Below, in pieces: positions 1,321 through 23,056 of a DNA stretch of 30,870 nt. Origin of the DNA: an uncultured Thermoleophilia bacterium. Lineage in GTDB: Bacteria; Actinomycetota; Thermoleophilia; UBA2241. Both the position numbers and the translations under genes were made by a program. The notes beneath the pieces were generated by a model. That model saw only the letters and a program-made list of their open reading frames with translations, searched no databases and was not told where the DNA came from. The stretch covers positions 1 through 30,870 of the forward strand of contig CAIWHY010000083.1 in assembly GCA_903912585.1 (NCBI GenBank), given 5' to 3'. How positions within the stretch are numbered: position 1 is the first letter of the stretch; each line of letters starts with the position of its first letter.

Positions 1321-2285
1321 CGCAGACCGGTCCTGAGCCGCGGGCTGATGAGAATAGTGAGGATATCCGCGATCAGGTTGAGCACCACGTAGACCGCGGC
1401 GATCAGCAGGCAGAGCGCCTGCACCACGGGCATGTCGCGGTTGGCCACGGCGTCGACGAGTGCCGACCCGATGCCGGGGAAGCCGAACAGGTACTCCACC
1501 GTGACGATGCCGCCGGCCAGCCACGCGATGTTGATGGCGATTACCTGGATGGTCGGCACGATGGCGTTGGGCAGCGCGTGGTGCCACAGCACGCGCGACT
1601 CAGAAAGGCCCTTCAGGCGCGCCATCATGACGTACTCGCTCTCGAGCACCTCGACGGTGGAGGCGCGCAGCATGCGGCTCACGTAGGGGATGACGGCGAG
1701 CACCAGCGTGGCCACGGGCAGCACGAAGAGGAGCATCTGACTGCCGAGCGGAGACAACGAGTCGATGTTGGAGACCGAGGGCAGCCACTTGAACACCGCC
1801 GTGGCGAACAGCAGCACGAGGGCGATGCCGATCACGAACTCGGGAAGCGCCGCAAGGCTGAGATTCGCGAGATTGACGACGTTGTCGAACCGGGAGTCTC
1901 GCCAGATGGCGCTCAGCGCCCCGATGAAGATCGAGATGGGGATACTGATCAGGGCGGCCAGCAGCACCAGCGTGGCCGAATTGACGATGCGGCTGCGAAG
2001 CAGCGTGGTGACCTTCGCCCCGCCGCCGACAAGCGAGTTGCCGAAGTTGCCGCGCACGACTCCGCTCAGCCAGCTCGTGTACTGCGTGACGACAGGTCGG
2101 TTCAGCCCCAATTCCTTGCGCAAGGCCTCATAGCGCGCCACGTTGGCCGAGTCCTTGCCGAGAATCGCCTTCGCGGCGTCGCCCGGCAGCGCCTGCGTGG
2201 CCGCGAACACGACCAGCGTGACCAGCAACAGGGTCAGCAAGCCAAGCCCCAGACGGATGAGCATGAGTTTGACGAGAGGCGGCAC
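1317..2285 (-). CDS. Peptide ABC transporter permease (DppB/OppB-like)
   Basis: LLVTLVVFAATQALPGDAA, LGLNRPVVTQYTSWL...GNFGNSL, SEYVMMARLKGLS...HALPNA, TVEYLFGFPGIG, NRDMPVVQ; GGGAG RBS before GTG. Confidence 0.93.
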   Translation of the reverse strand: MPPLVKLMLIRLGLGLLTLLLVTLVVFAATQALPGDAAKAILGKDSANVARYEALRKELGLNRPVVTQYTSWLSGVVRGNFGNSLVGGGAKVTTLLRSRIVNSATLVLLAALISIPISIFIGALSAIWRDSRFDNVVNLANLSLAALPEFVIGIALVLLFATAVFKWLPSVSNIDSLSPLGSQMLLFVLPVATLVLAVIPYVSRMLRASTVEVLESEYVMMARLKGLSESRVLWHHALPNAIVPTIQVIAINIAWLAGGIVTVEYLFGFPGIGSALVDAVANRDMPVVQALCLLIAAVYVVLNLIADILTILISPRLRTGLR

Positions 2286-2312
2286 GTGTGTCTCCCTAAG
2301 CGGCCGGCAGGA

Positions 2313-2348
2313 GCCGGGCGCCCCGACCGCGAGGGCGGGGCGCCCGGC
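2313..2348 (-). terminator. Strong stem-loop between the substrate-binding protein gene and the first permease (attenuator or mRNA stabiliser)
   Basis: Perfect 13-bp arms GCCGGGCGCCCCG (2313-2325) and CGGGGCGCCCGGC (2336-2348), 10-nt loop; no U-tract. Confidence 0.6.
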
Positions 2349-2378
2349 CGCGAGCGGCCGAACAGTCGAGCGGTTGGA

Positions 2379-8137: not shown

Positions 8138-8158
8138 CCCTGCGCGCGGCAACGCCGC

Positions 8159-9001
8159 TCAGGGGCGGGACCAGAGGTCCGTGGCGCTCAAGCCCAGCTC
8201 CTGTTCGACTTCGAGACGGTAGGCGGCGACGGCGCCCCGGGTGAAGGGTCCGGGGGGATCATCGAATTCGCGGTCCTCGACGACCGCGACCGCCTGGACT
8301 TCGCGCGCCGCTCCGGCCAGAAACGCCTCCGCGGCCGCGAGCGCGTCCTCGGTGCGGCACGTACGCTCGGAGACGTCCAGATGCCTCATGACGATGCGAC
8401 GCGTGATGGAATCCAGGATGCCGGCGTCGAGAGGCGGCGTGCACACCTCACCCTGCGGGGTGACCCAGAAGAAGGCGGCCTGCTGCACCTCCATGACGCG
8501 GCCGTCCGGCGTCGCGAGCAGCGCCTCGTCAAAGCCGCGCTCCTGAGCCGCACGCTTCGCCACCATGTTGCCGGCGTAGGAGAGGCTCTTCGCGCCGGCC
8601 AGCACCAGCCTCGGCGTGTCGATGACGAACGCCAGCCGGGCCGGCGGCCAGTCGAGGTACGGCTCGAGGAACACGATGCGCCTGCCGCCGCGCGTCAGCA
8701 CGATGCGCAAGTCGCTGAAGACGGGGCCGGCCCAGTCGAGGAGCGCGACGATCTCGCTCTCGAGCAACTCGCGCGGATACGGCAGGCGAAGCGTCGCGCA
8801 GGTGCGCGCCAGGCGATCGAGGTGCTCGACGAGCGTGAACGGCCGGCCGGCATAGCAACGCAGATACTCGAACGCGCCGTCTCCACGCAGCATGCCGTCG
8901 TCGTACAGAGGGACGGTCGCCTCGCGGGCGTCGCACAGCACGCCGTCGACGGAGGCCGCCATCTCAGGCGCGCCACTTGAGCCGCGCGCGAGCCCCGTCA
9001 C
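8159..9001 (-). CDS. Fold-type IV PLP enzyme (D-amino-acid transaminase / BCAT / ADC-lyase family)
   Basis: GDGAFEYLRCY, HLDRL, AKSLSY (PLP Lys), GFDEALL, LDSITRRIV, AREVQAV. GTG overlaps the upstream stop; alternative ATG at 8963. Confidence 0.88.
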   Translation of the reverse strand: MTGLARGSSGAPEMAASVDGVLCDAREATVPLYDDGMLRGDGAFEYLRCYAGRPFTLVEHLDRLARTCATLRLPYPRELLESEIVALLDWAGPVFSDLRIVLTRGGRRIVFLEPYLDWPPARLAFVIDTPRLVLAGAKSLSYAGNMVAKRAAQERGFDEALLATPDGRVMEVQQAAFFWVTPQGEVCTPPLDAGILDSITRRIVMRHLDVSERTCRTEDALAAAEAFLAGAAREVQAVAVVEDREFDDPPGPFTRGAVAAYRLEVEQELGLSATDLWSRP

Positions 9002-11037
9002 ATCCTCTCCACTCGCACCTCGACCGACTTCATCAGCGGGAACCCGCTGATCGGGTCGAAACGGTCGTCATGCGTGATGAGGTTCACGTTGGCGTCCCTC
9101 CATCCGTGCGTGATCTGGAGGCTGCCGGGGAGGATCTCGTTGGGAGCCATCACCTTCACGGGCAGCTCGAGTGAGCCGATGCGCGACGTCACGCGGACCG
9201 TGTCGCCGTCGGCCACCCCGAGAGCTTCGGAGTCGTCCGGGTGCATCTCCACCTCGGGGCCGGGAATGGCCGTCAGGAAGCGGGGGATGTTGCGAAACCG
9301 GCTGTGCAGGTAGAGGAGCTTGCGCGCCCCGGTGATGAGCACGAACGGGTACGCGGCGTCGGGTTCGCGGCGGTAGGCGGGACTCTGGTACACGGGGAGC
9401 TCGTCGTATCCCAGGTCCTTCAGGTACTGCGAGGCGAACTCGACCTTGCCGGACGGTGTGTCGAAGCCCGTATCCTTCCAGCGCCCCGGCAGAGACGGAC
9501 TGTACTCCACGCCCTCGGGATGAGCCTCCAGCTCCTCGAGGGTGAGACCCGTCGGCTCGAGCAGCCAACGGTTGAGAGCCGTCTCGTCCTCCCAGGGGAA
9601 GTAGTCGCCGATCCCCAGGCGGGCAGCGAGGTCATGCCAGAACTCGTACTCGCCCTGCACGCCCGGCCACGAGACGACCTTGCGGGTAACGCTCACGATC
9701 TGATGCTTGGCGTGAGCGTGCAGCTCGGTACGCTCGAGGAATGACGCCGCCGGCAGGACGTAGTCGGCCACCGCAGCCGTCTCGCTCATGAAGAGATCGC
9801 GCACCACCAGCAGGTCGAGGGACTTCAGGGCCTCGAGGACCCTCGTGGAGTTAGGATTCGTGGACGCCGGGTTCGCTCCCGTGACGATGAGCGCCCGCAG
9901 GGGATACGGGTCGTCCTGCAAGATGGCCTCGATGGCCGTCATGGTGTGACACTCCCGGCGCAGATCGTACAGCACGGGGAAGCGCCCGGCGCCGAGAGGG
10001 CCAAGGTGCTTCAGCGGCACGTCCTCGTACAGGGTGAGGTCGCGTAGCGGCAGCTCTGCCTTGAAGAAGGTGCCTCCCGCCCGGTCCAGGGCGCCGAGCA
10101 ACCCGTCAAGCATCGCGATGGCGCGGATGTTGTTGACGCCGTTCTCGTGGTGCTCGAGGCCGTTGCCGACGTAGGCGGCGACCCGCGGCGCGGCGCTCTG
10201 CATGGCGCGGGCGATCGCCCGGACGGCAGCCGCCGGCACCCCCGTCTCCGCCTGCACTGCCTCTGCAGTGAACGCCTTCGCATAGTCGACCACCTTGGCG
10301 AAGCCGACCGTATGATGCTCAACGAAGTCCGCGTCGCAGGCGCCCGCCGTGACGAGCTGGTGGATCAACCCCCAGGCCAGGGCGCCGTCGGTCCCCGGTC
10401 GCACCGCGGCGTGGATGTCGGCGCGGCGGGCGATCGCCGAGAGCCGCGGGTCCACCACCACGAGAGTCGCGCCCTTGCGGCGCGCGGCGGTGATGTACTG
10501 GGTCATGTTGGGATGCGCGTAGGGCGGGTTCGCTCCCCAGAGGACGATGCAGCCGGCGTTCTCGAGGTCGGGGACGGGCCAGGCACCGGCGACCAGCTTG
10601 AAGCCGAAGTAGCGCGCCGCGTAGCACATCGAGTCGTTGGAGAGGTAGTTGGGGCTCCCGACGGCGTGAGCGAAGCGACGCGCGATGTTCTCTTGCTGGC
10701 CAAAGCCGATGGCCTCGCCCTTCCACACACCGATGCTGCGCGCGCCGCGCTCCTCCCTGATCGCGGCGAGACGCGCGGCGATCTCGTCCAGCGCCTGCTC
10801 GAGCGGGATCTGCTGCCAGCCTTCGTCGGTCCGCTTGAGCGGCGTGAGGATGCGGTCGGCGTGATAGACCATGTCCACGGCCGCACGGGCCTTCACGCAC
10901 AACCGGCCCCGGTTCCAGAGATGCGCCTTGTTCCCGAGGATGTCGACGATGCGGCCGTCTTCAAGATGGACGTCGATGCCGCAGCGATCGTCGCACATCC
11001 GGCAGAGCGTCTGCTGGATCTCCGTCTCGGGCGGCAT
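8998..11037 (-). CDS. Cytoplasmic Mo/W-bisPGD oxidoreductase catalytic subunit, acetylene-hydratase-like clade
   Basis: N-terminal CRMCDDRC...LCVK [4Fe-4S] motif, GSPNYLSNDSMC (Cys ligand position), WGANP, VVVDPR, PGTDGALA, ADYVLPAASFLER, TPSGKVEF, EVEMHPDD; no Tat signal. Confidence 0.9.
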   Translation of the reverse strand: MPPETEIQQTLCRMCDDRCGIDVHLEDGRIVDILGNKAHLWNRGRLCVKARAAVDMVYHADRILTPLKRTDEGWQQIPLEQALDEIAARLAAIREERGARSIGVWKGEAIGFGQQENIARRFAHAVGSPNYLSNDSMCYAARYFGFKLVAGAWPVPDLENAGCIVLWGANPPYAHPNMTQYITAARRKGATLVVVDPRLSAIARRADIHAAVRPGTDGALAWGLIHQLVTAGACDADFVEHHTVGFAKVVDYAKAFTAEAVQAETGVPAAAVRAIARAMQSAAPRVAAYVGNGLEHHENGVNNIRAIAMLDGLLGALDRAGGTFFKAELPLRDLTLYEDVPLKHLGPLGAGRFPVLYDLRRECHTMTAIEAILQDDPYPLRALIVTGANPASTNPNSTRVLEALKSLDLLVVRDLFMSETAAVADYVLPAASFLERTELHAHAKHQIVSVTRKVVSWPGVQGEYEFWHDLAARLGIGDYFPWEDETALNRWLLEPTGLTLEELEAHPEGVEYSPSLPGRWKDTGFDTPSGKVEFASQYLKDLGYDELPVYQSPAYRREPDAAYPFVLITGARKLLYLHSRFRNIPRFLTAIPGPEVEMHPDDSEALGVADGDTVRVTSRIGSLELPVKVMAPNEILPGSLQITHGWRDANVNLITHDDRFDPISGFPLMKSVEVRVERM

Positions 11038-11523
11038 CTACTTCTCTCCCTTGTCCAGATGAAGGAGGCGCCTGAGGCTGGCGTCGAGCACCTCACGACG
11101 AAGGTCGACCGCCTCGTCGGCCTCGATGTAGCGCAAGGCTCCTGAGATGCAGGAGCGCACGCACATCGGGTCGCCTCCGCACAGGTCGCACTTGCCGCTC
11201 ACGCCTTGCGTCCTGTCGAAGTGGACGTTTCCGAATGGGCAGGCGAGCAGGCACATCTTGCACCCGGCGCAGCGAGCCGCGTCGATCTGGACCGCCCCCG
11301 TCTCCGGATCGCGACTGATGGCGGCGGCCGGGCACACCTCAAGGCACCAGGCGTCGTCGCAGTGCATGCAGGTCAAGGGGACGCACGCACGCTCCTCCGC
11401 GTAGAAGTTCACGCGGATGTGAGAGGCCCGCCTGTCGAAGTCGCCGCTCTGACGGAACGCACAGGCGTACTCGCAGTTGCGGCACGCGACACACGAGTCG
11501 GGGTCTACGGCAACTATGCGCAT
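11038..11523 (-). CDS. 4x[4Fe-4S] electron-transfer subunit (DmsB/HydN/CooF/AorA-like)
   Basis: CVACRNCEYAC, CMHCDDAWCLEVCP, CAGCKMCLLACP, KCDLC...CVRSC; its TAG abuts the Mo subunit ATG. Confidence 0.93.
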   Translation of the reverse strand: MRIVAVDPDSCVACRNCEYACAFRQSGDFDRRASHIRVNFYAEERACVPLTCMHCDDAWCLEVCPAAAISRDPETGAVQIDAARCAGCKMCLLACPFGNVHFDRTQGVSGKCDLCGGDPMCVRSCISGALRYIEADEAVDLRREVLDASLRRLLHLDKGEK

Positions 11524-12779
11524 GGCGTCTTCTCCTTGATCGCTCCCCTGCCCACGAGCCGCTGACCGAGGTCTCGTCCCTCAAGAAAGGTCGGCAGGTC
11601 AGGCAAGAGCCGTCTCTGACGCACAAATGGCCGGAGGCGGCCCAAGAGTGCCGCCCCTTCGGGGTCTCCCAACGAGATCGCGCCCACAGGCACTCCCGCC
11701 CGGGACACGAGCTTCAAATAGCGGATGCCCGCAAGGTCGCGCGACTCGAACACGTCGTCACCGTCGTCCTCGACGAACCGACCCAGCGAGGCCACGGTGA
11801 GCCCGAACATCTCGGTGACGTTCATGCTCAGGCTGCCGGCATAGGCCACGCCGGCCTCAGCGAGGTTGGCTCCGGCCACCCGGCCTTGTTCGACGGCCGT
11901 AGGCCACAACGCGTGGATCTCCCGCGGCCCGCCGGCGCTGGTGGGGCCTCGCGTCACGTCTCCGGCGGCAAAGACGCCGTCCACGCTGGTCTCCATGGTG
12001 TCGGCCACCGGGATGCCCGGCTTGCCCGGCTCAAGACACTCCGGCAGCAGCCCATCGTTGGGCCGCGCCCCAGTGGCCACGATGACGGCGTCGACCGCGA
12101 ACGCGCCTGTGCCGTCGGTCGAGACGCGCACCTTGCCGTCGTGGTCTGTCTCCACGCCGTCGGTGCGCGTGCCCGTGCGCACGTCCACGCCGTACGCGAG
12201 GAGCTGCTCGTGGAGGATCCGCGCCGCCGCCGCGTCCAGCACGCGAGGCAGGATCTGATCAAGCAGCTCCACGACGATCACTTGGAGTCCGCGCTGCCTG
12301 GCGGCCCAGGCTGCCTGCAAGGCGACGAAGCCCGAGCCGAGCACCATCACCCGCGCGCCCTCCCGGAACAGCGAATCGAGCCGAGTGGCGTCGTCCAAGG
12401 TCCACAGCGTGTGGATACCCGGACCGTCAAGGCCCGGGATCGGCGGCCGCGCCGGACTCGATCCGGTGGCGAGCAGAAGCCGGTCGAAGCCGAGGCGGCG
12501 TCCGTCCGCGAGTTCGAGCTCGCACGTCGCGGGATCGACCCGCTCGACGCGAGCGCCAAACTCAGTCGCCACGCGCAAGCGCGCGTAGTCGCTCATCTGC
12601 CGGATGAACAGGCCCTCGTACGAGAGTCGTCTGCGCAGGTAGTACGGCAGCAGCACGCGGGAGTAGGCCGGGACCGGCTCAGCGGAGACGAGCGTGACCG
12701 ACGCCGTCTGGTCACGCTCGCGGAAGCCCTCGAGCGCACTCAAAGCGGCTGCGCTGTTGCCGACGATGGTCACCTGCAC
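11514..12779 (-). CDS. FAD/NAD(P)-dependent oxidoreductase (NirB/Nox/AorC-like)
   Basis: IVGNSAAALSA, AYSRVLLPYYL, RLLLATGSSP, LGSGFVALQAA, VIVATGARPN, VFAAGDV, GSLSMNVTEMFG. Confidence 0.9.
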   Translation of the reverse strand: MQVTIVGNSAAALSALEGFRERDQTASVTLVSAEPVPAYSRVLLPYYLRRRLSYEGLFIRQMSDYARLRVATEFGARVERVDPATCELELADGRRLGFDRLLLATGSSPARPPIPGLDGPGIHTLWTLDDATRLDSLFREGARVMVLGSGFVALQAAWAARQRGLQVIVVELLDQILPRVLDAAAARILHEQLLAYGVDVRTGTRTDGVETDHDGKVRVSTDGTGAFAVDAVIVATGARPNDGLLPECLEPGKPGIPVADTMETSVDGVFAAGDVTRGPTSAGGPREIHALWPTAVEQGRVAGANLAEAGVAYAGSLSMNVTEMFGLTVASLGRFVEDDGDDVFESRDLAGIRYLKLVSRAGVPVGAISLGDPEGAALLGRLRPFVRQRRLLPDLPTFLEGRDLGQRLVGRGAIKEKTPCA

Positions 12780-12800: not shown

Positions 12801-14252
12801 TCAGTCGGTCGCCGCTGCGAACGCCGCGACGAGCTCGTCCGCGGCCGCCGCGATCCGAGGCGGCAAGGGCGGCGCCTCGTGCTCGGCCAGCAGCCGCATC
12901 GCCTTGACGCGAGCCTTGGCCGCGAGGTCAAGGCCGCCGTCGGCCAGCCAGCTCTCGCGCCCCTGGCGGTTCAGGATGCCGGGCCGCCACTGGACCTCGC
13001 GCATGTGGCGGCGCGTGTGCTTGCTGCCCATGAAGTGGCCGCCCGGACCGGTCTGGGCGATCGTCTCGACGGCCAGGCTGTCGCGGTCCACGGGAACGCC
13101 TCCGAGAAGGCGCCTGTTCATGGCGATGGACTCGTCCACGATCACGATCTGCTCGAGAGAACACGTGAGCCCGAAGTCGAGATACCCGACGTCGTGCGCG
13201 AGATTGGAGCCGGCCTGCATGGCGAGGAACGTGATCTGCGTCGCCTCCATGCCGGCCTGCGCGTCCGGCAGATGGCTGTCGCTCGTGCCGGCGTTGCCCC
13301 AGTTGGGGATGTCCAGCCACTTGGCCATCTCGACGGCGCACATGTAGCCGGTGAGGTAGCCGAGGTCGTTGTAACTCGATTGCGCGGTCGCGATGTCGAG
13401 GACGGCGGAGCCGATACCGAACAGGAACGGCGCGCCGGGGCTGCGCAGCTGATGTACCACCATGCCGAACAGGCACTCGGCCACTCCCTGGGCCGTATGC
13501 CCGGCGACGGTGATCGGCGCCGTTGCTCCGGCGAGCGGCGCCGGCGAGTAGATCGACGGTACGCCGGCATCGGCGCACAGGAGGAGCTTGTCGATGCTGT
13601 CGCCGGGATGGACCAAGGGGCTGGTCGGCTCCATGTAGACGACGAAGTACGGCTTCTGACGAAGCTGCTCGGCCCCGCCGCGCAACTCGCGGGCGATGTC
13701 GATCATCACCGCGAGGTCGCGGGCGTTCTCGGCCGTCATGACCAGCGGCTTGGTGCTGTTCTCCATCATCGCCTGGAAACTCAGCAGGTACGCTTGATGG
13801 GGATCCCGGTCTGTCGGGTGGGCCGAGCTCATGACGAAGTCCAGATTCGGCAGCGCGTCGCAGAGGCGAGCGGCGCGACAGACGTCCTCGAGGACGCTCG
13901 GCCGGTGCTCGCCGGTGTCGAGATCGTACGTGGACATCAGGTCCGACCCGGTGCCGAAGTAGCTGTTGTACCCCCCGAGCTCCATGGCCGGCTCGCCCAG
14001 GCGGTCGTACACGTCGACCACCTTTGGCACGGAGAGGCGTGCCTGCTCGACGAGGTGCCGGGGCATCAGCACGCGCTCGTCGGCGGTCAGCGTGCAGCCG
14101 GCGTCCAGAAGCATGGCTCTCGCCTCGTCGTGCTGCACCAGCATCCCGACCTTGCCGAGGATCTCGAGCACGGCCACGTAGATGTCGCGCTTGGCCGCCT
14201 CACTGAGAAACTGGAGGCGGCCGACCTGCGACGCGTTGCGAAGTTCCTTCAT
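12801..14252 (-). CDS. MttB-family (trimethylamine methyltransferase superfamily) protein, non-pyrrolysine, copy A
   Basis: SYFGTGS, NSTKP, EPTSPL, APLAGATAPITVAG, PGAPFLFG, NAGTSDSHLPDAQAGME, HDVGYLD, GPGGHF. ATG 14252 has a GGGAG RBS; no in-frame TAG. Confidence 0.92.
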   Translation of the reverse strand: MKELRNASQVGRLQFLSEAAKRDIYVAVLEILGKVGMLVQHDEARAMLLDAGCTLTADERVLMPRHLVEQARLSVPKVVDVYDRLGEPAMELGGYNSYFGTGSDLMSTYDLDTGEHRPSVLEDVCRAARLCDALPNLDFVMSSAHPTDRDPHQAYLLSFQAMMENSTKPLVMTAENARDLAVMIDIARELRGGAEQLRQKPYFVVYMEPTSPLVHPGDSIDKLLLCADAGVPSIYSPAPLAGATAPITVAGHTAQGVAECLFGMVVHQLRSPGAPFLFGIGSAVLDIATAQSSYNDLGYLTGYMCAVEMAKWLDIPNWGNAGTSDSHLPDAQAGMEATQITFLAMQAGSNLAHDVGYLDFGLTCSLEQIVIVDESIAMNRRLLGGVPVDRDSLAVETIAQTGPGGHFMGSKHTRRHMREVQWRPGILNRQGRESWLADGGLDLAAKARVKAMRLLAEHEAPPLPPRIAAAADELVAAFAAATD

Positions 14253-14306
14253 GTCACGCACTCCCGTCTTGTCCATCACGGGTGTGGGTCTCGCGCGCCT
14301 GCCCGG

Positions 14307-15413
14307 TCACGAGGAAGCCTGCGGCTCGAGCGAGCGCAGGCGATCGAGAAAGAAGTCCATCTCCTCGCGCGTGCCTGTGCTGACCCGCGCCCACCCGGGA
14401 CAGCCGAGCCCGTTGCCGTCGCGCACGATGACGCCCAGAGCCATGAGGGCTTCGCAGACCTTGTCCTGGGGCACGCTCAGGCCCTCGATGGAGACGAGGA
14501 CGAAGTTCGTCTGGCTGGGGACCACGGCGCGACCCATGCTCGCGAGGGCGCTCTCGAGGTACTCGCGCATCTCGATGATCAGGCGCCGGCGCTCGAGTAT
14601 CTGGTCCTGGTGCTTGAGCGCCTCAAGTGCGGCGACCTGCGCCAGCCGGTTGACGTTGAACGGCTGGCGCACCTTGTCGAGAGCATCCCTCACGACCTCC
14701 GGACAGAGGCCGTAGGCGACGCGCAGACCGGCCAGCCCGTAGGCCTTCGAGAACGTCCGGAACAGGCAGACGTTGGGCCTCTCGGCCTGGAGTCTCTGTG
14801 TATCCTCGCGATCGTCCGCGGAGACGAACTCGTTGTAGGCCTCGTCGATCACCACGAGAACGTCCGCCGGGATCTTGTCGACGAAGGCCGCGACCTCGGC
14901 CGCGGGCAGGTAGTTGCCGGTCGGGTTGTTGGGGTTGCACACGATGACCAGCTTCGTGCGCGGAGTGACCGCGGCGGCCATGGCCTCGAGGTCGTGGCCG
15001 AAGTCCGGGAGCAGAGGGATCATCACGGCTTTGGCGTCGCGTCGCAGGCAGATGTCCTCGTACAGCATGAACGACGGGTCTGCAAAGACGACTTCGTCGC
15101 CGTGGTCGAGCAGGGCGTCGCCGAGCAGCTCCAGCAGGTCGTCCATGCCATTGCCGACAGCGATCTCCTCGAGGCGCCGTCCGAAGAGCTCGGCCAGCGC
15201 CTGGCGAAGATCCAGGCAGTCGCCGTCCGGATACCGGTTCACCTCGTCGAACGCCGCCATCACGGCCGCCTTGACCTCGGCAAGAGGCGGCAGCGGGAAC
15301 TCGTTGGACGCCAGCTTGACCACTTCGGTCAGCCCATACTGACGCATGACGTTCTCGATCGGGACGCCGGGCGTGTACGGCACGATGCCCTCGATAGCCG
15401 CAAGGAACCTCAT
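14307..15413 (-). CDS. hisC: Histidinol-phosphate/aromatic aminotransferase (HisC-like, fold type I PLP)
   Basis: PYTPG, KLASNE, RYPD, GNGMDD, CNPNNPTG, DEAY, RTFSKAYGLAGLRV (PLP Lys). Its role in this cluster may be catabolic. Confidence 0.85.
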   Translation of the reverse strand: MRFLAAIEGIVPYTPGVPIENVMRQYGLTEVVKLASNEFPLPPLAEVKAAVMAAFDEVNRYPDGDCLDLRQALAELFGRRLEEIAVGNGMDDLLELLGDALLDHGDEVVFADPSFMLYEDICLRRDAKAVMIPLLPDFGHDLEAMAAAVTPRTKLVIVCNPNNPTGNYLPAAEVAAFVDKIPADVLVVIDEAYNEFVSADDREDTQRLQAERPNVCLFRTFSKAYGLAGLRVAYGLCPEVVRDALDKVRQPFNVNRLAQVAALEALKHQDQILERRRLIIEMREYLESALASMGRAVVPSQTNFVLVSIEGLSVPQDKVCEALMALGVIVRDGNGLGCPGWARVSTGTREEMDFFLDRLRSLEPQASS

Positions 15414-15850
15414 CGCGCCTCCCGCTCTCCCGGACCGTTCCGCCTATGGACGACGATCTTGCCCGCAACGGCGTCGACGGCGATGCGGTCGCCATCCTCG
15501 ATGTCGTCGTAGAAGGCGGGATCGACCTCGTCCACGAGCGGCACTTCCATCGCGATGATGGTCGACACGAGCACCGGCTCCGGCGTCTGGATGACGACGG
15601 CCGCCGGAGCCGTCTTCTTCATGATCAGCCGATACAGGCCGTCGGCCTGCACGACGGAGCTGCCCTTGCCCGTGGGCATGACCAAGACCTTGCCGGCGAC
15701 GCTGCGGCCGTCCAGGCAGTGCCCACTCTCGATCACGCAGCCCGTGTCCGGCTCGCACAGCGCAAAACAGAGGGCGTCTGTCGACAGAAGCGCCTCGCCC
15801 TCCCCGATGCCCTCGGAGATGGGCCGGCATGCGTACTCGTGCTCGCTCAT
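15410..15850 (-). CDS. Aconitase X small (swiveling, DUF126) subunit
   Basis: GEGEALLS, GHCLDGRSVAGKVLVMPTGKGSS, APAAVV, IEDGDRIAVDAVAG; ATGA overlaps at both ends. Confidence 0.88.
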   Translation of the reverse strand: MSEHEYACRPISEGIGEGEALLSTDALCFALCEPDTGCVIESGHCLDGRSVAGKVLVMPTGKGSSVVQADGLYRLIMKKTAPAAVVIQTPEPVLVSTIIAMEVPLVDEVDPAFYDDIEDGDRIAVDAVAGKIVVHRRNGPGEREAR

Positions 15851-17064
15851 TTGACCACCTCTCCAGCAAGGGCTGCTTGGACGGCTTGCGCCAAGGGCCG
15901 CACGGCGTAGCGCTGCCCGTAGACTTGACAGTAGAAGGCGCATTTCTGGGACTCGGTGACGCCAGGCCGGCCGTAGTACGCGTCCCAGCAGCCCGGGATG
16001 TCCATGCAGGTATCGGCGACGACGTGTCCGCCTGCCCGCTGGATGACGCCGAGGAACCCCATGCGCTCGGCGAGCTCGAGCGTGAGAGAGCTGACGAGGA
16101 TCCAGGTGTCGACGGCCAACTGCTTGCCATCCACGAGCGCAGCGACCTCCCCCACCTGGCGGATCGTGAGATGGGGACAGCCGAGCATGGCGTACTCGAT
16201 GGGCCCCGACTCGCCGCTGAACTGCTCGCGCACGCGGTCGAGGTCGGCGTCGGTGATCGTCACGCGATGCTTGACGGCGTTGCCGCCGAAGGCCGCCTCG
16301 ACCGTCGGCGCCTCCGGCGTGATCCCGGCGATGTGGTACATGGCGACGGCGCCGGAGGTGGCGAGCTCAGCGCCGAACTGAACAAAGCCTTCGGGAGTGG
16401 CACGTTTCTCGATGCCCGTGAACACCGGGACCTCAGCTCCCTTGTACTTCTGCGGATACGCATAGCCCAGAAGACTCCAGTCGAAGTCGTCCTCGATCTT
16501 GGCCTCGACTTCGACCAGCACTTCGCCCTTGCGGTTCTCGTCGAGCAGCAAGCCGTACTCGGGCACGCGCCCGGTCACGGCAGCGCAGAGCGCGCTGATC
16601 GACGACTCGCGGTTGCTGCGCGCCCCGAGCACGGAGTTGACGTAGGGAGTGGCGGAGGACTCCGAGAAGGCCACGACCTCGCCGAAGGCGGGCACGTTCT
16701 TCTCGAGCTCGGGCGTGCAGCTCAGCGTCAGCGTCGCACCGATGCGCCGGTAGGCGTCGTTGCTGGCCTGCACCCTGTCCCGACCCTCGTCCGTCAACGG
16801 GCCCAGATGTTCTTCAACGTACCCGGTGTCCATGCTTGGGTTCGTCGTCGGGGAGACGACGCAGCGCGCCCCGAGGTCGAGCAGCTTGGTGACGAAATAG
16901 AGATCGCCCTCTTGGGCGCTGGCCGCGACGTGCGTGCGGGTGATGGGCACCATACGCTTGGCGTAGAAGGCCTTGCCGGTACCTACCTGGACCTTCATCG
17001 CGAGCGCGACGCCTTCGCCATGCTTGCCCGCCAGCATGTCGAGTTCGAGGCTTGTCAACTCCAT
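15847..17064 (-). CDS. Aconitase X large (catalytic, DUF521) subunit
   Basis: MELTSLELDMLAG, TTNP, SCTP, FSESSA, GARSNRE, AAVTGRVPEYGLL, GAVAMYHIAGITPEA, LGCPH, DTC (three Fe-S Cys); GAAGGGAG RBS before ATG 17064. Confidence 0.92.
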   Translation of the reverse strand: MELTSLELDMLAGKHGEGVALAMKVQVGTGKAFYAKRMVPITRTHVAASAQEGDLYFVTKLLDLGARCVVSPTTNPSMDTGYVEEHLGPLTDEGRDRVQASNDAYRRIGATLTLSCTPELEKNVPAFGEVVAFSESSATPYVNSVLGARSNRESSISALCAAVTGRVPEYGLLLDENRKGEVLVEVEAKIEDDFDWSLLGYAYPQKYKGAEVPVFTGIEKRATPEGFVQFGAELATSGAVAMYHIAGITPEAPTVEAAFGGNAVKHRVTITDADLDRVREQFSGESGPIEYAMLGCPHLTIRQVGEVAALVDGKQLAVDTWILVSSLTLELAERMGFLGVIQRAGGHVVADTCMDIPGCWDAYYGRPGVTESQKCAFYCQVYGQRYAVRPLAQAVQAALAGEVVK

Positions 17065-17170
17065 CAAGGCTCCCTTCTCACACCCGGTGACCGGGTCGAC
17101 GGCTGGAGTGGTTCTCGGCGAACGCACGATACTCGGCGGCGCCTGGGGCGCCACGGAAGCAACCTCGCCA

Positions 17171-17198
17171 ATCATGAACGGTCCCTGCAACGGGTCAA
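17171..17198 (-). promoter_or_regulatory. Candidate internal promoter for the acnX-to-aminotransferase IV sub-operon
   Basis: TTGACC (17198-17193), 16 bp, CATGAT (17176-17171). Confidence 0.5.
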
Positions 17199-17215
17199 GC
17201 TGCCGGGGCCCGGGG

Positions 17216-17229
17216 TCTCGTATGCTGGA
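17216..17229. promoter_or_regulatory. Candidate IclR operator B
   Basis: Minus strand TCCAG-CATA-CGAGA(C), 17 bp upstream of TTGACC. Confidence 0.6.
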
Positions 17230-17474
17230 TGGGAATGACCTGCACCGGGCGGGACGGGATCGGCTTCAGGCCGCCGGGAGCGGAATCCGGCCGATCGGAG
17301 AGTGACGTCCAGACGAGCTCGCCCGGAGCGCCGGATGCGGCGCGCCCACTGGACGCGCTGGTCGAGGAGGCGCGCAGGGAGCGCAGCGCCTGAGCGCGTG
17401 CCACGCGCAGACGAGCGCGACCAAGGCTCGCGGCGACGCCGCACGACCCTTCGTCCCAGGCTGCGCCCGTCGGC

Positions 17475-18878
17475 TCAGCTCAGGCAGTAGCGGTCGAGTT
17501 GACGACGCGTGAGCGCGTCAAGGTCGTCGGGCGGCTCGTGGGCCGAGAGCAGTTCGGCGACGCGCCGGGTGGTGGCGGAGGCGGCGTCCTCGCCGCCCGC
17601 CGCGGCCCAGCGCTCGAAGGGCTCGATAGCGCGGGGCCCCACGCGCTCGAAGTCCCGCGCGTGCCGCCGCGTGTGCGCCTGACCGAGATAGCCGCCCCCG
17701 GGTCCGACGGCGTCGATCGCTTCTTCGGCGCGCTCGTCGTCGCTCGCAGGCACGTCCTGCAGGGCGGCGCGCAGTCCCGCGACGGTGTCGGCGTCGAGCA
17801 CGTACTTCTCGAGCGAGAGGGCGTTGAACGAGCTCAGCATGCCGACGGCCTGAAAGAGGAAGTGGCTCCCCGAGAACGCGGCTGCTGCGAGGCCCACCGC
17901 GGATTCCGACAGCGCCCGGGCGTCGACGACATGGGCGTCGGTGACGGCCCCGCCCGCGCGCACCGGCAAGCTGCAGTGACGGGCCAGTCCGGCGGTCGCA
18001 CGCGCCAGCCGGGCGAACTCCGGCGTGCCAAAGAGCGCCGCCCCGGTGCGTAGCGAGGCCATCGCAGAGACGCCGCCGTACACGAAGGGGCTGCCCTCGC
18101 GGGCCGCTTGCGCAAGCACGAGCGCGGCGAGCACCTCCGCGTGCTGCACCGTGAGGACGCCGGCAAGCGTTGCCGGCCCGGTCGTGCCGCCCATGACGCA
18201 GGCGGTCACACACGCAGGCTGGCCCAGCCGAGCCCAGCGCACGAGGATGCGAGCGTTCTCCGCAGAGAGCTGCAGCGGGGACGTCGTGTTGAGGACGATC
18301 AGGGCGCGCGGCCGGTCGTGCCAGGCCGCGCCGAACAGGATCTCGTTGATCCGCTCGGCGGCGACGATATCCTCGTCGGCCGAGGCGACCCACTCGATGG
18401 CCTTGTCGCTCAGCGTCAGGCGTGCGTGGGTGCCGTGCCGCGTCCGCGCCTCCTCGGGGAGGTCGAGCGGCTCCATGCAGTCGCTGTTGAAGTCGATCGC
18501 CGGCAGGAGGTGGCCGAGCTTGGCCGTGGCGGCCAGATCGGCCAGAGTGCCCGGGCGCATCGTGCGTCCTTCGATCATGTAGGCGGCGCCTGAGCCCGAA
18601 CCGACAACGCGGCCATCGGCGCCACCGAGCGGCAGATCCAGCTCGGGCCGGCGGCCGGCGAGCACGAACGAACGGACCACGGTGGACAGCGCCGCCTGCA
18701 CCGCGCCGGCATCCAGATACACGCGGCGGCCGTCGCAGCGCGCTCCGCGCGAGCGGAGCAGGGCGACGGCCTCGTCGTCGTGGATGAGCACGCCGGTCCG
18801 CTCGAGCACCCGCAGCGCGCTCTCGTGGACGGCGGCGATCGAGGCCACCTCGGGAAGCTCCGCGCCGCCTGCGCCCAT
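17475..18878 (-). CDS. MttB-family methyltransferase, non-pyrrolysine, copy B (divergent from A and C)
   Basis: ALRVLERTGV, NTTSPL, GGTTGPATLAG, HAEVLA, GSPFVYGG, GTPE, RAGGAVTDAHVVDA, SLEKYVLD, GPGGGYL. ATG 18878 lies 2 bp after the copy C stop. Confidence 0.88.
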   Translation of the reverse strand: MGAGGAELPEVASIAAVHESALRVLERTGVLIHDDEAVALLRSRGARCDGRRVYLDAGAVQAALSTVVRSFVLAGRRPELDLPLGGADGRVVGSGSGAAYMIEGRTMRPGTLADLAATAKLGHLLPAIDFNSDCMEPLDLPEEARTRHGTHARLTLSDKAIEWVASADEDIVAAERINEILFGAAWHDRPRALIVLNTTSPLQLSAENARILVRWARLGQPACVTACVMGGTTGPATLAGVLTVQHAEVLAALVLAQAAREGSPFVYGGVSAMASLRTGAALFGTPEFARLARATAGLARHCSLPVRAGGAVTDAHVVDARALSESAVGLAAAAFSGSHFLFQAVGMLSSFNALSLEKYVLDADTVAGLRAALQDVPASDDERAEEAIDAVGPGGGYLGQAHTRRHARDFERVGPRAIEPFERWAAAGGEDAASATTRRVAELLSAHEPPDDLDALTRRQLDRYCLS

Positions 18879-18880
18879 CC

Positions 18881-20335
18881 TCAGCCGCCCGGTGTGAACC
18901 CGGCCACCAGTGCATCGATGCGCACCGTCAGCTCCGCGGGTAGCGGCGCCGGCGCGTGGGTCTCGAGCAGCTGGAGCGCTTTGCGGCGGGCTTTCTCGGT
19001 GAGGTCGAGCGCGCCCTCTTCCCGCCAGCGCGCGTGGCCCTGGCGGTTGATGATCGTCGGACGCCACTGGGCTGTACGCACGTGCCTGGCAGTGTGGCGG
19101 GCCGCGAGGAAGTCGCCGCCGGGGCCGACCTGGCGGATGGTGTCCACGGCCAGGGTCTCGGCGTTCACTTCCACGCCGGCGAAGAGACGGCGATTGAGGG
19201 AGAGGTACTCGTCGACCATGACGATCAGCTCGAGCGACGCCGTGAGGCCGAAGTCGAGGTAGCCGACGTCGTGGTTGAGGTTGGACCCGGTAGCGAGACT
19301 CAGGAAGGTGAGCTCGGCCGCCTCCATGCCCGCCTGGGCGTCGATCACCTGGGCGTCGGTCGTGCCGGCGTATCCCCAGTTGGGCAGGTCGAGCCAGCGC
19401 GCCATCTCGACGGCGCAGACGTAGCCCATGAGGTACTCCGGCGCGTTGTACGCGGACTGCATCGTGCCCATGTCCAGCACCGCCGGGCCGATGCCGAAGA
19501 CGAACGGCGCGCCGGGCCGGCGCAGCTGGTGGATGACGAGCCCGAGCAGCGACTCGGCCGTACCTTGGGCGATGTGCCCGGCCACCGTGATCGGCGCCGT
19601 GCCGCCGGCGAGCGGGGAGGTGGAGTAGACGCAAGGGACGCCGTGGTCGGCGCACAGGAGCAGCTTGTCGACGGCCTCCACGGGGTGACGCAGCGGGCTG
19701 GTCGGCTCGCCGTAGAGGACGAAGTACGGCTTGGCGGCGAGCTCGTCCGCGCCGCCGCGGACCGCGGCGGCGATCTCGATCATCACGGCGAGGTCGCCGG
19801 CGTTCTCGGCGACGACGACCAGTGGCTTCGTCGTGTTGGCGACCATCGCGCGAAAGCTCTCGAGCAAGGCGCGGTGCGGGTCGCCTTCGCCGGGGTGCGC
19901 GTAGGCCATGACGAAGTCGATGTTCGGCAGGGCGTCGCAGAGGCGCGCCGCCTGGACGCCGTCGGCGAGGACGGTCGGCCGGTGCTCGCCGGTCTCGAGG
20001 TCATAGACGGCGGTCACGGCCGAGCCGTTGCCGAAGTAGCTGTTGTAGCCGCCTAGGCTCATCGCCGGCTTGCCGGTGCGGTCGAAGACCTCGATCACGT
20101 GCGGTGCGCTCTCTCGCACCTGCTGCACGATGGCGCGCGGCACCTTGACGAGGTCGGGCTCGGTGACCTCGCAGCCGGCGGCGCGCAGCAACTCGAGAGC
20201 CTCGGGGTGATGGACGCGCATGCCGATGGTGGAGACGATCTCGAGAGCCGCCTCGTAGATGGCGAGCTTGTCGTCGTCGGTGAGATAGGCCAGGCGGCCG
20301 GCGCGAGGCCGATCGCTTGGATCCGTGATAGGCAC
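18881..20335 (-). CDS. MttB-family methyltransferase, non-pyrrolysine, copy C (paralog of copy A)
   Basis: SYFGNGS, NTTKP, EPTSPL, PLAGGTAPITVAG, PGAPFVFG, YAGTTDAQVIDAQAGME, HDVGYLD, GPGGDF; GGGAGG RBS before GTG. Confidence 0.92.
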   Translation of the reverse strand: MPITDPSDRPRAGRLAYLTDDDKLAIYEAALEIVSTIGMRVHHPEALELLRAAGCEVTEPDLVKVPRAIVQQVRESAPHVIEVFDRTGKPAMSLGGYNSYFGNGSAVTAVYDLETGEHRPTVLADGVQAARLCDALPNIDFVMAYAHPGEGDPHRALLESFRAMVANTTKPLVVVAENAGDLAVMIEIAAAVRGGADELAAKPYFVLYGEPTSPLRHPVEAVDKLLLCADHGVPCVYSTSPLAGGTAPITVAGHIAQGTAESLLGLVIHQLRRPGAPFVFGIGPAVLDMGTMQSAYNAPEYLMGYVCAVEMARWLDLPNWGYAGTTDAQVIDAQAGMEAAELTFLSLATGSNLNHDVGYLDFGLTASLELIVMVDEYLSLNRRLFAGVEVNAETLAVDTIRQVGPGGDFLAARHTARHVRTAQWRPTIINRQGHARWREEGALDLTEKARRKALQLLETHAPAPLPAELTVRIDALVAGFTPGG

Positions 20336-20474: not shown

Positions 20475-20497
20475 GGATTTGGATGGAGGTATGTGCA

Positions 20498-21367
20498 GTG
20501 CCGGGCGACCCGAAACAGGACGAGCAGGGAACGACTTGGGGCGCCGCCCACGTGCTCGACGTCCTCGAGTTCCTCGGGCGCCGCACGAGTCCGGCGCCGG
20601 CCAGCATCGTCGCATCCTCCTGCGACATCCCCCGCTCCAGTACCTACGCGCTGCTCAACCTGCTGAAAGCGCGACGGTTCGTCACGTACCGCGCGGAAGA
20701 GCGCGCCTGGTCGCTCGGCTCGGCGGCATTCGAGCTGAGCGCAGACGCCCCGCTCTTCGCTCACGGACTGGCAGTGCTGCGCGCGTTCGCGACGTCCTCT
20801 CGCGGCCTCACCGTCTCGCAGATCGCGAGTGGCGCCGGCATGTCCCGGGTCACCGTGACGCGCATCCTTCCGCATCTCGTCGAGAGCGACCTGCTGCGGG
20901 CCGAGCCCGACGGGACCTACTCGTTGGGCTTGGAGCTCGTGAGCCTGGCTTCGCGGGTGGGCTGGGTAGACCGGCTGCGGATCGCCGCCCGCCCGCACCT
21001 CGTGCGCCTGCGCGACGCGACCAGCGAGACCGCGAACCTGATCATCCTCGACGGCGATCACGCGATCTACGTCGATCAGGTCGAGAGCCCATACGCGCTG
21101 CGACACAGCGGCTGGGTGGGTCGCCGCGTGCCGCTGGCGGGGACGGCGACCGGCACGGCGTTCGGGGATCGCACGACATCACATGTCGCCAAAGACGCGG
21201 TCGAGACAGGAGTCACAGCCATCGTCTGCGCCATCGACCTGCCCGGCGACGAGGCTGCCGTCGGGGTCACGGCGCCGAACTGGAGGATCGAGGAATTCGG
21301 CGTGATGCGCGCGCAGCGTATGGTCGAGGCGGTCGCCCGCGAGATCGCGCAGCGTCTGCACGGGTAG
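20498..21367 (+). CDS. IclR-family transcriptional regulator with two tandem N-terminal winged-HTH domains
   Basis: HTH1 VLDVLEFL...IPRSSTYALLNLLKARRFV...WSLG; HTH2 GLAVLRAF...LTVSQIA...MSRVTVTRILPHLVESDLL...YSLG; effector domain ARPHLVRLRDATSETANL...VGRRVPL...GVTAI. GTG 20498 is 7 nt after GGAGGT. Confidence 0.9.
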   Translation: MPGDPKQDEQGTTWGAAHVLDVLEFLGRRTSPAPASIVASSCDIPRSSTYALLNLLKARRFVTYRAEERAWSLGSAAFELSADAPLFAHGLAVLRAFATSSRGLTVSQIASGAGMSRVTVTRILPHLVESDLLRAEPDGTYSLGLELVSLASRVGWVDRLRIAARPHLVRLRDATSETANLIILDGDHAIYVDQVESPYALRHSGWVGRRVPLAGTATGTAFGDRTTSHVAKDAVETGVTAIVCAIDLPGDEAAVGVTAPNWRIEEFGVMRAQRMVEAVAREIAQRLHG

Positions 21368-21532: not shown

Positions 21533-23056
21533 GTGACCATCATCCTGGACGGCGCGTCCCTGACGGCCGAGAGGCTCGTGCGCATCGCGCGCGGCGGCGA
21601 GAAGGTGGAGCTGGACCCGGCGGCCGTGGAGCGCATCCGGGTCTGCAGGGTCATGCTCGAGGACAAGATCAAGAACCGCGAGATCATGTACGGCACCAAC
21701 ACCGGCATCGGCGAGTTCAGCGAGATCGTGCTCGACGACGACCAGGTGCAGCAGTTCCAGCGCTTCCTCGTCTACAACCACGCCGCCGGCATCGGCGCGC
21801 CCGCCCCGATAGAGGTCGTGCGCGGCGCCATGGCGGCCCGCGCCAACGTCCACGCCCACGGCAACTCGGGCAACCGCCCCGAGATCACGCAGACTTTGGT
21901 CGCGCTGCTCAACGAAGGCGTGACCCCGCTGATGAGCTCCAAGGGCTCGGTGGGCGCCTGCGGCGACCTCGCCCCGATGGCCCAGATGGCGCTGTCGATG
22001 ATGGGCGAGGGCGAGTCCTTCTACCGGGGCGAGCGCATGCCCACCCGCGAGGCGATGGAGCGCGCCGGCATCCCGATCCCGGGGCTGGAGGCGCGCGACG
22101 GCTTGGCGACGATCAACGGCTCCAACGTCCTCACGGCGATGAGCGCGCTGCTCTGCTGGGACGCGGACCGCTGGCTGCGCCAGGCCGAGATCGCGGCTTC
22201 CATGAGCCTCGAGGCACTGCTCGCCAACCTCAAGCCGTACAACAGCAAGCTGCACGAGCTGCGCGGCTTCGCAGGCGCGGTGCGCAGCGCCGCGGCCATC
22301 CGCGCCTGCATCGCGGAGAGCGACCTCGCCACCGGCAAGATCAAGACCAAGGTGCAGGACGCCTACTCGATGCGCTCCACGCCGCAGGTGATCGGGGCCG
22401 CGCACGACGCCCTCAAGTGGGCCAGAAGCCAGGTGGAGATCGAGCTCAACGGCGTCGGCGACAACCCGATCTTCGTGCCCGAGGACAAGCTGACGCTGAC
22501 CGGCGCCAACTTCCAGGGCACGCCGGTCAGTCTCCCGATGGAGATGGTCGGCCAAGCCATCACCATGGTCTGCGTGCTCAGCGAGCGCCGGCTCAACCGC
22601 ATGGAGAACACCGCGACGAGCCAGGGCCTGCCCGACTTCCTCACGCCGAACCCGGGCTTCTACAGCGGCCTCATGCTCAGCCAGTACACTGCCGACATGC
22701 TCATCACCGAGCAGCGCATCCTCGCGGCGCCGGCGAGCACGATGAGCATCCCGGCGGCGGCCGATCAGGAGGACTTCGTCTCCATGGGCATGAACACTGC
22801 CCTCAAGAACCGGCAGATCCTCGAGAACGCCTGCGGCGTGCTCGGCATCGAGTTCATGGCCGCGGCGCAGGCGCTCGACTTCCGCGACTTCACGCCCGGC
22901 AAGGGTGTGCGCGCCGCCAAGGCGGTCATCCGCAAGCACGTCGAGCACCTCGACGTCGACCGGCCGCTCTACCCGGACCACAACGCCATGGCCGCGCTCG
23001 TCGAGTCGGGCGAGATCCTGGAGGCGGTCGAGGCCGCCGTCGGGCCGCTGGGCTGA
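21533..23056 (+). CDS. hutH: Histidine ammonia-lyase-like (HAL/PAL/TAL family) enzyme with an Ala-Cys-Gly MIO triad
   Basis: YGTNTG, LVYNHAAG, GSVGACGDLAP, LATINGS, QDAYSMRSTPQV, DNP, GANFQG, QEDFVSMG; AAGGAG RBS before GTG. Confidence 0.88.
   Translation: MTIILDGASLTAERLVRIARGGEKVELDPAAVERIRVCRVMLEDKIKNREIMYGTNTGIGEFSEIVLDDDQVQQFQRFLVYNHAAGIGAPAPIEVVRGAMAARANVHAHGNSGNRPEITQTLVALLNEGVTPLMSSKGSVGACGDLAPMAQMALSMMGEGESFYRGERMPTREAMERAGIPIPGLEARDGLATINGSNVLTAMSALLCWDADRWLRQAEIAASMSLEALLANLKPYNSKLHELRGFAGAVRSAAAIRACIAESDLATGKIKTKVQDAYSMRSTPQVIGAAHDALKWARSQVEIELNGVGDNPIFVPEDKLTLTGANFQGTPVSLPMEMVGQAITMVCVLSERRLNRMENTATSQGLPDFLTPNPGFYSGLMLSQYTADMLITEQRILAAPASTMSIPAAADQEDFVSMGMNTALKNRQILENACGVLGIEFMAAAQALDFRDFTPGKGVRAAKAVIRKHVEHLDVDRPLYPDHNAMAALVESGEILEAVEAAVGPLG

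Follow-up and report, generated by a model that had tools for sequence, protein, structure and literature searches.

Three pyrrolysine-free MttB-superfamily methyltransferases in a gene island of an uncultured Thermoleophilia bacterium, with partner genes on other contigs

What is the function of three MttB-superfamily methyltransferase genes that share an island in which no partner protein for such enzymes is encoded? This question is raised by a contig of 30,870 nucleotides (GenBank CAIWHY010000083.1, assembly GCA_903912585.1; hereafter the window) from an uncultured Thermoleophilia bacterium, in which an initial annotation made from the sequence alone had described three MttB paralogs, here termed MttB-A, MttB-B and MttB-C, or simply A, B and C. 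We find that these proteins are new, uncharacterized members of a known superfamily, and consider that they probably act as the substrate-specific methyltransferase (MT1) components of a modular, corrinoid-dependent methyl-transfer network. This assignment is carried by their family and fold, by their lack of pyrrolysine (Pyl), by the presence of partner genes in trans, and by the occurrence of a corrinoid protein gene beside their nearest paralogs and within sister islands. The chemistry that we propose for them would follow that of the family.

The window is contig C83 of a metagenome-assembled genome (MAG) of 3.13 Mb in 568 contigs that is 90% complete and has a GC content of ~69%. The closest relatives of the MAG are uncultured Thermoleophilia (Actinomycetota) of soils, peat and lakes, with the MAGs bog_752 and palsa_645 among the matches, and near-identical DNA occurs in metagenomes of lake water and other fresh water from more than ten studies. 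No RNA record was listed as containing either the 7.5-kb stretch of the island or the MttB-C gene by itself, a result that is uninformative as to expression. Genuine genes were told apart from the numerous spurious open reading frames (ORFs) by their third-position GC profiles. In what follows a number prefixed by C denotes a contig of this MAG, one prefixed by L a related locus and one prefixed by G a relative genome.

The three methyltransferases

The MttB genes all lie on the minus strand and are listed here in the direction of transcription.

18881..20335, minus strand: MttB-C, 484 residues, pyrrolysine-free MttB superfamily, Thr at the Pyl column (Pfam MTTB 278 bits, E 1e-82)
17475..18878, minus strand: MttB-B, 467 residues, divergent paralog, Val at the Pyl column (Pfam MTTB 328 bits, E 9e-98)
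12801..14279, minus strand: MttB-A, paralog of MttB-C, Thr at the Pyl column (Pfam MTTB 273 bits, E 3e-81)

All three proteins match the MTTB profile (PF06253, curated cut-off 25 bits) nearly end to end, for example from position 26 to 493 of 500, and are members of the MttB superfamily by this measure. The genes carry a consistent coding signature for a 69% GC genome, with a GC content of 0.90-0.92 at third and 0.45-0.47 at second codon positions. MttB-C starts at a GTG at 20335, 5 nt 3' of the sequence GGAGGA. The listed start of MttB-A is a GTG at 14279, but an alternative ATG at 14252, which is preceded by GGGAG, is the likelier true start. The AlphaFold model of MttB-C, the one protein of the three that was modeled, has a TIM-barrel fold and a mean predicted local distance difference test score (pLDDT) of 90.8.

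The relationship between the paralogs is as initially described, with MttB-A and MttB-C closely similar (61-62% identity) and MttB-B divergent from either (~30%). In a tree of the MttB proteins of this genome, A and C form one clade with paralogs on C528 and C19 (support 100/100), and the sister of B is a C171 paralog (47% identity). Orthologues of MttB-C with 77-87% identity are present in ~25 Thermoleophilia MAGs.

None of the three reading frames contains an internal stop, and hence none contains an in-frame TAG. The Pyl residue of Methanosarcina barkeri MttB (PDB 7xcl) aligns with the first T of the GTTD motif in MttB-C, and in a hidden Markov model (HMM) alignment of all paralogs the Pyl column is occupied by T in A (AGTSD), by V in B (GAVTD) and by T in C (AGTTD). 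The Thr/Val/Thr assignment of the initial annotation holds. M. barkeri MttB belongs to the same superfamily as the three proteins but has Pyl where they have Thr, Val and Thr. Against TIGR02369, the equivalog profile for Pyl-type MttB, the three proteins score 253-357 bits, well below the cut-off of 525, and so are not MttB in the strict sense. Given these scores and the residues at the Pyl column, trimethylamine is not the expected substrate.

We compared the proteins with characterized members of the superfamily. The best solved matches of MttB-C are MttB (7XCL, 188 bits) and MtgB (180 bits), and that of MttB-B is MtgB (231 bits). Superposition of the MttB-C model gives template modeling (TM) scores of 0.89 with MtgB (27% identity), 0.84 with MtpB (22%) and 0.85 with MtcB (21%), where the identities to MtpB and MtcB are structure-based values between the MttB-C model and Swiss-Prot models; MttB-C is thus not a close relative of either of these last two enzymes. 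MtgB of Desulfitobacterium hafniense (PDB 2QNE, 9YCE) shares the fold of MttB-C and likewise has an ordinary residue, in its case Leu, at the Pyl column. It is encoded together with its corrinoid protein MtgC, whereas A, B and C have no corrinoid gene alongside. Glycine betaine is held in MtgB by Y97, R312, H348 and F356, of which R312 is kept in MtcB, MtpB, MthB and MtyB (PMC13080624). The corresponding residues are S, W, H and G in both A and C, which therefore retain His alone, and S, R, Q and F in B, which retains the Arg and the Phe and has Ser and Gln at the other two positions.

Judged by sequence, no characterized enzyme is an orthologue of A, B or C. Nor do all three cluster with a single characterized enzyme, an outcome that the initial annotation had set against its own reading: MttB-C has 21-27% identity to such enzymes, and the binding residues are not kept. 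MttB-B looks like an acidic-betaine enzyme, and the pocket of A and C differs from that of B in being more aromatic. Since the carboxylate-binding Arg of MtgB is retained in B but is a Trp in A and C, the two types probably recognize different compounds or methylation states.

The tight arrangement of MttB-C and MttB-B raises the alternative that the two form an obligate hetero-oligomer and act as one enzyme, perhaps as a heterodimer in which the C-terminal arms are exchanged. The genes are 2 bp apart, as first noted (the TGA of C at 18881-18883 is followed by GG and then by the ATG of B at 18878), which suggests translational coupling, and their adjacency is kept in ~25 related genomes. In the MtgB dimer, moreover, each C-terminal arm lines the active-site cavity of the partner subunit (PMC13080624). 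These points have to be set against the homo-oligomeric nature of the solved members cited here, which include the MtgB homodimer (PMC13080624) and 7xcl MttB entries with six identical chains. The catalytic domains are also full length and well-scoring in both C and B. Finally, both clades occur alone: the B-like gene on C171 has a corrinoid gene of its own, and single C-like genes (57-64% identity) are found at many loci. What the genomes offer in favor of a hetero-oligomer is the conserved, closely spaced pair itself, and we regard this arrangement as very unlikely.

Partner genes in trans

The window had been reported to contain no corrinoid protein, activator or tetrahydrofolate (THF) methyltransferase gene, and this is borne out by two types of search. 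Whole-genome Pfam searches gave no B12-binding, RamA (RACo_C_ter), URO-D or pterin-binding match on the window contig, and a seed search across every ORF of the window gave no corrinoid, RamA or second methyltransferase (MT2) gene either. Elsewhere in the MAG these genes are plentiful. Alongside ~35 MttB-family matches, 28 of them full length, the genome contains at least six MttC-like corrinoid genes with the DxHxxG motif (on C411, C113, C171, C275 and C513, together with a gene start on C528). It also contains two RamA genes (C193 and C342), pterin-binding methyltransferase genes on C193, adjoining the RamA gene, and on C197, and URO-D/MtaA-like genes on C473, C210 and C51. The corrinoid protein, activator and MT2 are thus all available at the level of the genome, with none of them in the window, and the genome-wide search for corrinoid, RamA and MtqA-type homologs that had been proposed as a check finds corrinoid and RamA genes and candidate MT2 genes on other contigs.

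The idea of a shared corrinoid protein encoded elsewhere, which was one of the options first put forward, is therefore well supported. It gains further support from the nearest paralogs of the island genes, since the C528 gene of the A/C clade and the C171 gene of the B clade both have a corrinoid gene directly after them, and from sister genomes, in which corrinoid genes are found inside the orthologous island itself. An MttB and corrinoid gene pair is located between the histidine ammonia-lyase (HAL) family gene and the IclR regulator gene of the island in L032, L034, L037 and L049, and after MttB-B in L035 and L042. No strict orthologue of this pair was found in the assembled 90% of the MAG, where its counterpart on C113 is a paralogous one, with identities of 47% and 56-60%.

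A missing partner gene is not in itself surprising. In Eubacterium limosum the genes for MtpB, MtcB and MtyB are not located with those for MtqC and MtqA/RamQ, which nonetheless serve all three enzymes (PMC8604678), so the surprise implied by the initial annotation was unwarranted. Because the genome has ~35 MttB proteins, and has carriers and activators encoded on other contigs, the absence of a partner gene from the window is the ordinary, known modular layout of such systems. The same pattern extends across the genus. All 18 of the sampled same-genus genomes (G001-G018) have from 15 to more than 34 MttB matches each, in comparison with 0-3 in genomes of other genera of the class (G019-G030), and a first look finds up to 69 MttB candidates per 2-4 Mb genome of the genus. 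Four high-quality genus genomes contain 8-15 corrinoid genes each, and the excess of MttB matches over corrinoid genes indicates that sharing is the rule.

The E. limosum system of MtpB, MtcB and MtyB with shared MtqC, MtqA and RamQ resembles the present one in having pyrrolysine-free MT1 enzymes and many paralogs per genome, and the RamA gene adjoins a pterin-binding methyltransferase gene in the MAG too (C193). The two differ in that E. limosum is a gut firmicute and our organism a lake actinobacterium of the Thermoleophilia. They also differ in the neighbors of the genes, which here are for a HAL, an IclR regulator, aconitase X (AcnX), a HisC-like protein and a molybdoenzyme, and in the replacement of the conserved carboxylate-binding Arg by Trp in A and C. 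Also comparable are the related uncultured Actinobacteriota of Stordalen Mire, which have both Pyl-type and pyrrolysine-free MttB genes and for which expression of both types has already been reported (Ellenbogen et al. 2023, PMC10805028). Substrates and the island described here lie outside the resolution of that study, and the DNA of the present organism occurs in lake-water metagenomes. A literature search found no paper that joins the term 'MttB superfamily' with Thermoleophilia.

The lack of a corrinoid gene in the 31-kb window could alternatively be explained if A, B and C needed no corrinoid protein, either working with free cobalamin alone or passing the methyl group straight to another acceptor. 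For some family members methylation of free cob(I)alamin has indeed been observed in vitro (PMC8604678). This explanation is nevertheless scarcely credible in view of the plentiful partner genes elsewhere in the genome, some of them adjoining the nearest paralogs, and of the corrinoid gene within sister islands. We know of no family member that works without a corrinoid.

In the modular network that we favor, each TIM-barrel MttB enzyme would bind an N-methylated ammonium compound and offer a single methyl group to a small corrinoid protein in its Co(I) state. This separate protein would be encoded on another contig and be common to the ~35 MttB paralogs. RamA-type activators would re-reduce the corrinoid, and a pterin-binding (MtqA-like) or MtaA-like methyltransferase would hand the methyl group on to THF. 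From there it could enter the enzymes of the Wood-Ljungdahl pathway, which are also encoded in the genome (an acetyl-CoA synthase gene, CdhC/AcsB, is found on C208).

The genome also encodes Pyl-type enzymes and the machinery that they require. Four MttB genes have a TAG exactly at the Pyl column (C19:18783-20387, C366:4372-5904, C8:142-2043 and C79:10527-11768), an MtbB gene is present on C19, PylS is encoded on C101 and PylD on C61, and a gene for tRNA-Pyl(CUA) lies beside PylD at C61:128-200. A tRNA-Sec gene is located on C159, and some MttB and RamA matches of the MAG contain one in-frame TGA. These features are consistent with pyrrolysine and selenocysteine decoding both operating in one Thermoleophilia bacterium. 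As a separate observation, a haem-copper oxidase subunit I gene is present on C491 alongside the acetyl-CoA synthase gene on C208, and judging from these genes the organism may combine Wood-Ljungdahl chemistry with some oxygen respiration.

Gene neighborhood and candidate substrates

The genes surrounding the three MttB genes are as follows.

21533..23056, plus strand: HutH-like aromatic amino-acid lyase, a conserved island neighbor (Pfam Lyase_aromatic 519 bits; just below HutH cut-offs)
20483..21367, plus strand: IclR-family regulator, divergent from the C-B pair and conserved beside MttB-C orthologues (Pfam HTH_IclR and IclR_C)
15847..17190, minus strand: aconitase X large subunit (Pfam AcnX 395 bits)
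15410..15943, minus strand: aconitase X swivel (small) subunit (Pfam AcnX_swivel_put 82 bits)
14307..15413, minus strand: HisC-like class I/II aminotransferase, directly upstream of MttB-A (Pfam Aminotran_1_2; TIGR01141 hisC 327 bits, cut-off 276.55)
8998..12779, minus strand: three-gene module for a molybdenum- or tungsten-bis(pyranopterin guanine dinucleotide) (Mo/W-bisPGD) enzyme, directly downstream of MttB-A (Pfam and NCBIfam), made up of the next three genes
11514-12779, minus strand: PadH/NirB-like FAD/NAD(P)H oxidoreductase
11038-11523, minus strand: 4Fe-4S protein
8998-11037, minus strand: Mo/W-bisPGD catalytic subunit, best solved match acetylene hydratase (2e7z, 248 bits)

Reading down the minus strand from 20335, MttB-C and MttB-B are followed by a gap of ~280 bp, in which no terminator was found between MttB-B and the AcnX genes, and then by the genes for the large and small AcnX subunits, the HisC-like aminotransferase and MttB-A. 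The strand continues with the PadH-like oxidoreductase, the 4Fe-4S protein and the Mo/W-bisPGD catalytic subunit, and then with a class IV aminotransferase. In the other direction the IclR regulator, the HutH-like lyase and phosphoenolpyruvate carboxykinase (PEPCK) are encoded divergently from MttB-C. The gene after the HutH-like lyase is thus that for PEPCK and not a hut gene; a second HAL (C273), HutU (C302) and a HutI-like gene (C54) are present elsewhere in the MAG. The HutH-like lyase has Ala-Cys-Gly at the triad that gives rise to the 4-methylideneimidazole-5-one (MIO) group, compared to Ala-Ser-Gly in MIO-forming lyases, and its orthologues have one or other of these two sequences.

A core of PEPCK, HAL and IclR genes with the divergent C-B pair is kept in ~25 relatives and is frequently accompanied by a further C-like copy, and the islands of relatives have 3-5 MttB genes, the number varying between them. 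The gene order of the window is reproduced exactly in L040, and order beyond the C-B pair is variable among the relatives. At least nine related loci likewise have the Mo/W-bisPGD module next to MttB genes of these clades.

Genes of histidine catabolism recur near these clades in several forms. In L078 and L084 the neighbors of A/C- and B-clade genes include true HutH genes. Ten loci contain HutH-like genes that lack the Gly of the MIO triad (pattern xS-D, as in GSLGES-DLA and GSLGAS-DLA). These follow directly after A/C-clade genes in L059, L061, L074, L079 and L093, and come after the orthologous island in L043, L044 and L046-L048. The positions of six of them are given here.

L059:4948-6474, HutH-like gene without MIO
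L061:12701-14191, HutH-like gene without MIO
L093:8862-11234, HutH-like gene without MIO
L074:5086-6978, HutH-like gene without MIO
L079:2180-3814, HutH-like gene without MIO
L044:16851-18275, HutH-like gene without MIO

Absence of the MIO group is a hallmark of the trimethylammonia-lyases that act on ergothioneine and histidine betaine (bioRxiv 10.64898/2026.04.22.720169), and these genes are candidates for such lyases. In another phylum, a Desulfobacterales locus (L090, ~1-11425) contains genes for HutH, HutI (450 bits, above cut-off), a HutC-like regulator, CobW, a corrinoid protein and an A/C-like MttB, as well as a pyrrolysine-free MtmB homologue and an MtaA/CmuA-type methyltransferase. 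This cluster looks like a candidate demethylation system for a methylated histidine. Lastly, the N-terminal module of the hercynine-sulfurizing enzyme MES is related to acetylene hydratase (PMC9516567), the best solved match of the catalytic subunit in the window.

The recurrence of HutH-like lyases, hut genes and an acetylene-hydratase/MES-like molybdoenzyme beside these clades suggested to us that the substrates are N-alpha-methylated histidine derivatives, for example hercynine or ergothioneine. We put this forward tentatively, as a proposal drawn from gene neighborhood that is a real possibility but falls somewhat short of being probable. The demethylated histidine products might then be substrates of the HutH-like lyase and the HisC-like aminotransferase encoded alongside.

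Several observations weigh against this proposal and the pathway built on it. Since gene order varies beyond the C-B pair, the MttB proteins may have no functional tie to the AcnX, HisC and Mo modules. The nearest paralogs in the same genome (on C171, C528, C19 and C113) are in contexts without histidine genes: the C171 gene is accompanied by genes for a BetI-type regulator, a zinc-dependent alcohol dehydrogenase and an FAD oxidase, the C19 gene by genes for a Pyl-type MttB and MtbB, and the C528 gene by a xanthine-dehydrogenase-like gene. Many of the co-occurrences with HAL genes come from related, and so non-independent, genomes, and among the top-ranked papers listed on these subjects none connects MttB enzymes with hercynine or ergothioneine. 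In addition, because the MAG is 90% complete and in 568 contigs, the corrinoid protein that serves A, B or C is not assignable.

Such observations could be taken further, to mean that the island is a mosaic in which the histidine-type neighbors are coincidental. The variability of synteny outside the C-B pair would fit this explanation, as would three features of MttB-B, namely its retention of the equivalents of MtgB Arg312 and Phe356, its best solved match to MtgB and the position of its C171 paralog next to a BetI-type regulator. The dozens of MttB paralogs in the genus, moreover, presumably serve many different substrates. Against it, A and C retain just one of the four residues that bind glycine betaine, and among those lost is the Arg shared by MtgB, MtcB, MtpB, MthB and MtyB; MttB-C shows only 21-27% identity to the characterized enzymes. 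Furthermore, HAL-family lyases and hut genes are found by these clades repeatedly, in several different arrangements and in more than one phylum. On balance we consider a mosaic origin unlikely, though deserving of serious attention.

A more specific proposal is sequential demethylation, in which C, B and A, together with the extra C-like protein (C') of relatives, each remove one methyl group. A tri-methylated compound such as hercynine would in this way be converted through di- and mono-methylated forms to the free amino acid that is used by the MIO-type lyase and the aminotransferase. The division of labor between tri-, di- and mono-methylated intermediates that was suggested at the outset acquires some circumstantial appeal from the association with histidine ammonia-lyases of the MIO type, whose substrates must carry a free amine. 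Both a HAL of this type and a HisC-like aminotransferase, which likewise requires a free alpha-amino group, are conserved beside the MttB genes. The presence of 3-5 MttB genes per island in relatives, the combination of MttB-like and MtmB-like methyltransferases in the Desulfobacterales hut cluster and the differences between A/C and B at the substrate-contact positions defined in MtgB are also in keeping with it. However, all characterized pyrrolysine-free MttB enzymes use quaternary amines and take one methyl group (PMC13080624, PMC8604678). A and C are moreover 61% identical and fall within a four-paralog clade whose other members have unrelated contexts, and the copy number of the island differs between relatives. 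Stepwise removal of all the methyl groups by A, B and C is consequently improbable in our view, slightly more so than a mosaic island.

The substrate proposal can be extended to an oxygen-independent, cobalamin-dependent catabolism of hercynine and ergothioneine. Removal or exchange of the sulfur would fall to the molybdoenzyme, after which the MttB enzymes would strip the N-alpha-methyl groups and either the Ala-Cys-Gly HAL or the HisC-like protein would take the resulting histidine. Possibly all three methyl groups would be stripped, with the A/C and B types specialized by methylation state. This scheme is a speculative one that we think is rather unlikely to hold in full. Were it correct, the catabolic route would be an undescribed one, and its enzymes would be the first pyrrolysine-free MttB proteins to act on non-quaternary amines.

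To our knowledge, the majority of the very large pyrrolysine-free MttB superfamily has so far been assigned no substrate. The unusually informative neighborhood of the present clade, with its HAL relatives, MIO-less lyases, hut genes and MES-like molybdoenzyme, allows the concrete prediction of N-alpha-methylated histidine substrates. If true, this would give the superfamily a new substrate class and would identify a new anaerobic sink of ergothioneine and hercynine in lakes and soils. The Thermoleophilia genus, with its 15 to more than 34 MttB matches per genome and its Pyl and Sec tRNA genes, would then appear specialized in methyl-group scavenging.

Intergenic sequences and the flanks of the window

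The divergent region between the MttB-C and IclR genes contains a perfect 10+1+10 palindrome, GCGCGCACTTCAAGTGCGCGC, at 20393-20413. It is present in a single copy in the window and was found in none of the related loci. The shared half-site TGGACGCGC is not enriched (4 matches, 1.7 expected), and 12-mers common to the intergenic regions have the appearance of high-GC noise. A regulon that joins MttB-A with the C-B pair through a common operator was considered and is not confirmed, given the single copy of GCGCGCACTTCAAGTGCGCGC and the lack of enrichment of TGGACGCGC.

The leftmost part of the window is occupied by two divergent groups of genes.

373..4028, minus strand: peptide/opine-type ABC importer genes (Pfam), with an SBP_bac_5 protein that has a twin-arginine translocation (Tat) signal at 2379-4028 and a permease at 373-1587
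4475-8137, plus strand: three overlapping genes, for a D-2-hydroxyacid dehydrogenase, a LarA-family (nickel-pincer) racemase homologue and an M20 ArgE/DapE-type hydrolase, divergent from the importer

Genes for the SBP_bac_5 type of binding protein and for the permease recur after MttB-B in relatives. Towards the other end of the window a HigA-family antitoxin gene (26084-26413, plus strand; 110 bits, above cut-off) directly follows, in the same frame, an ORF of 156 residues (25613-26083), and from this arrangement the two may constitute a toxin-antitoxin pair.

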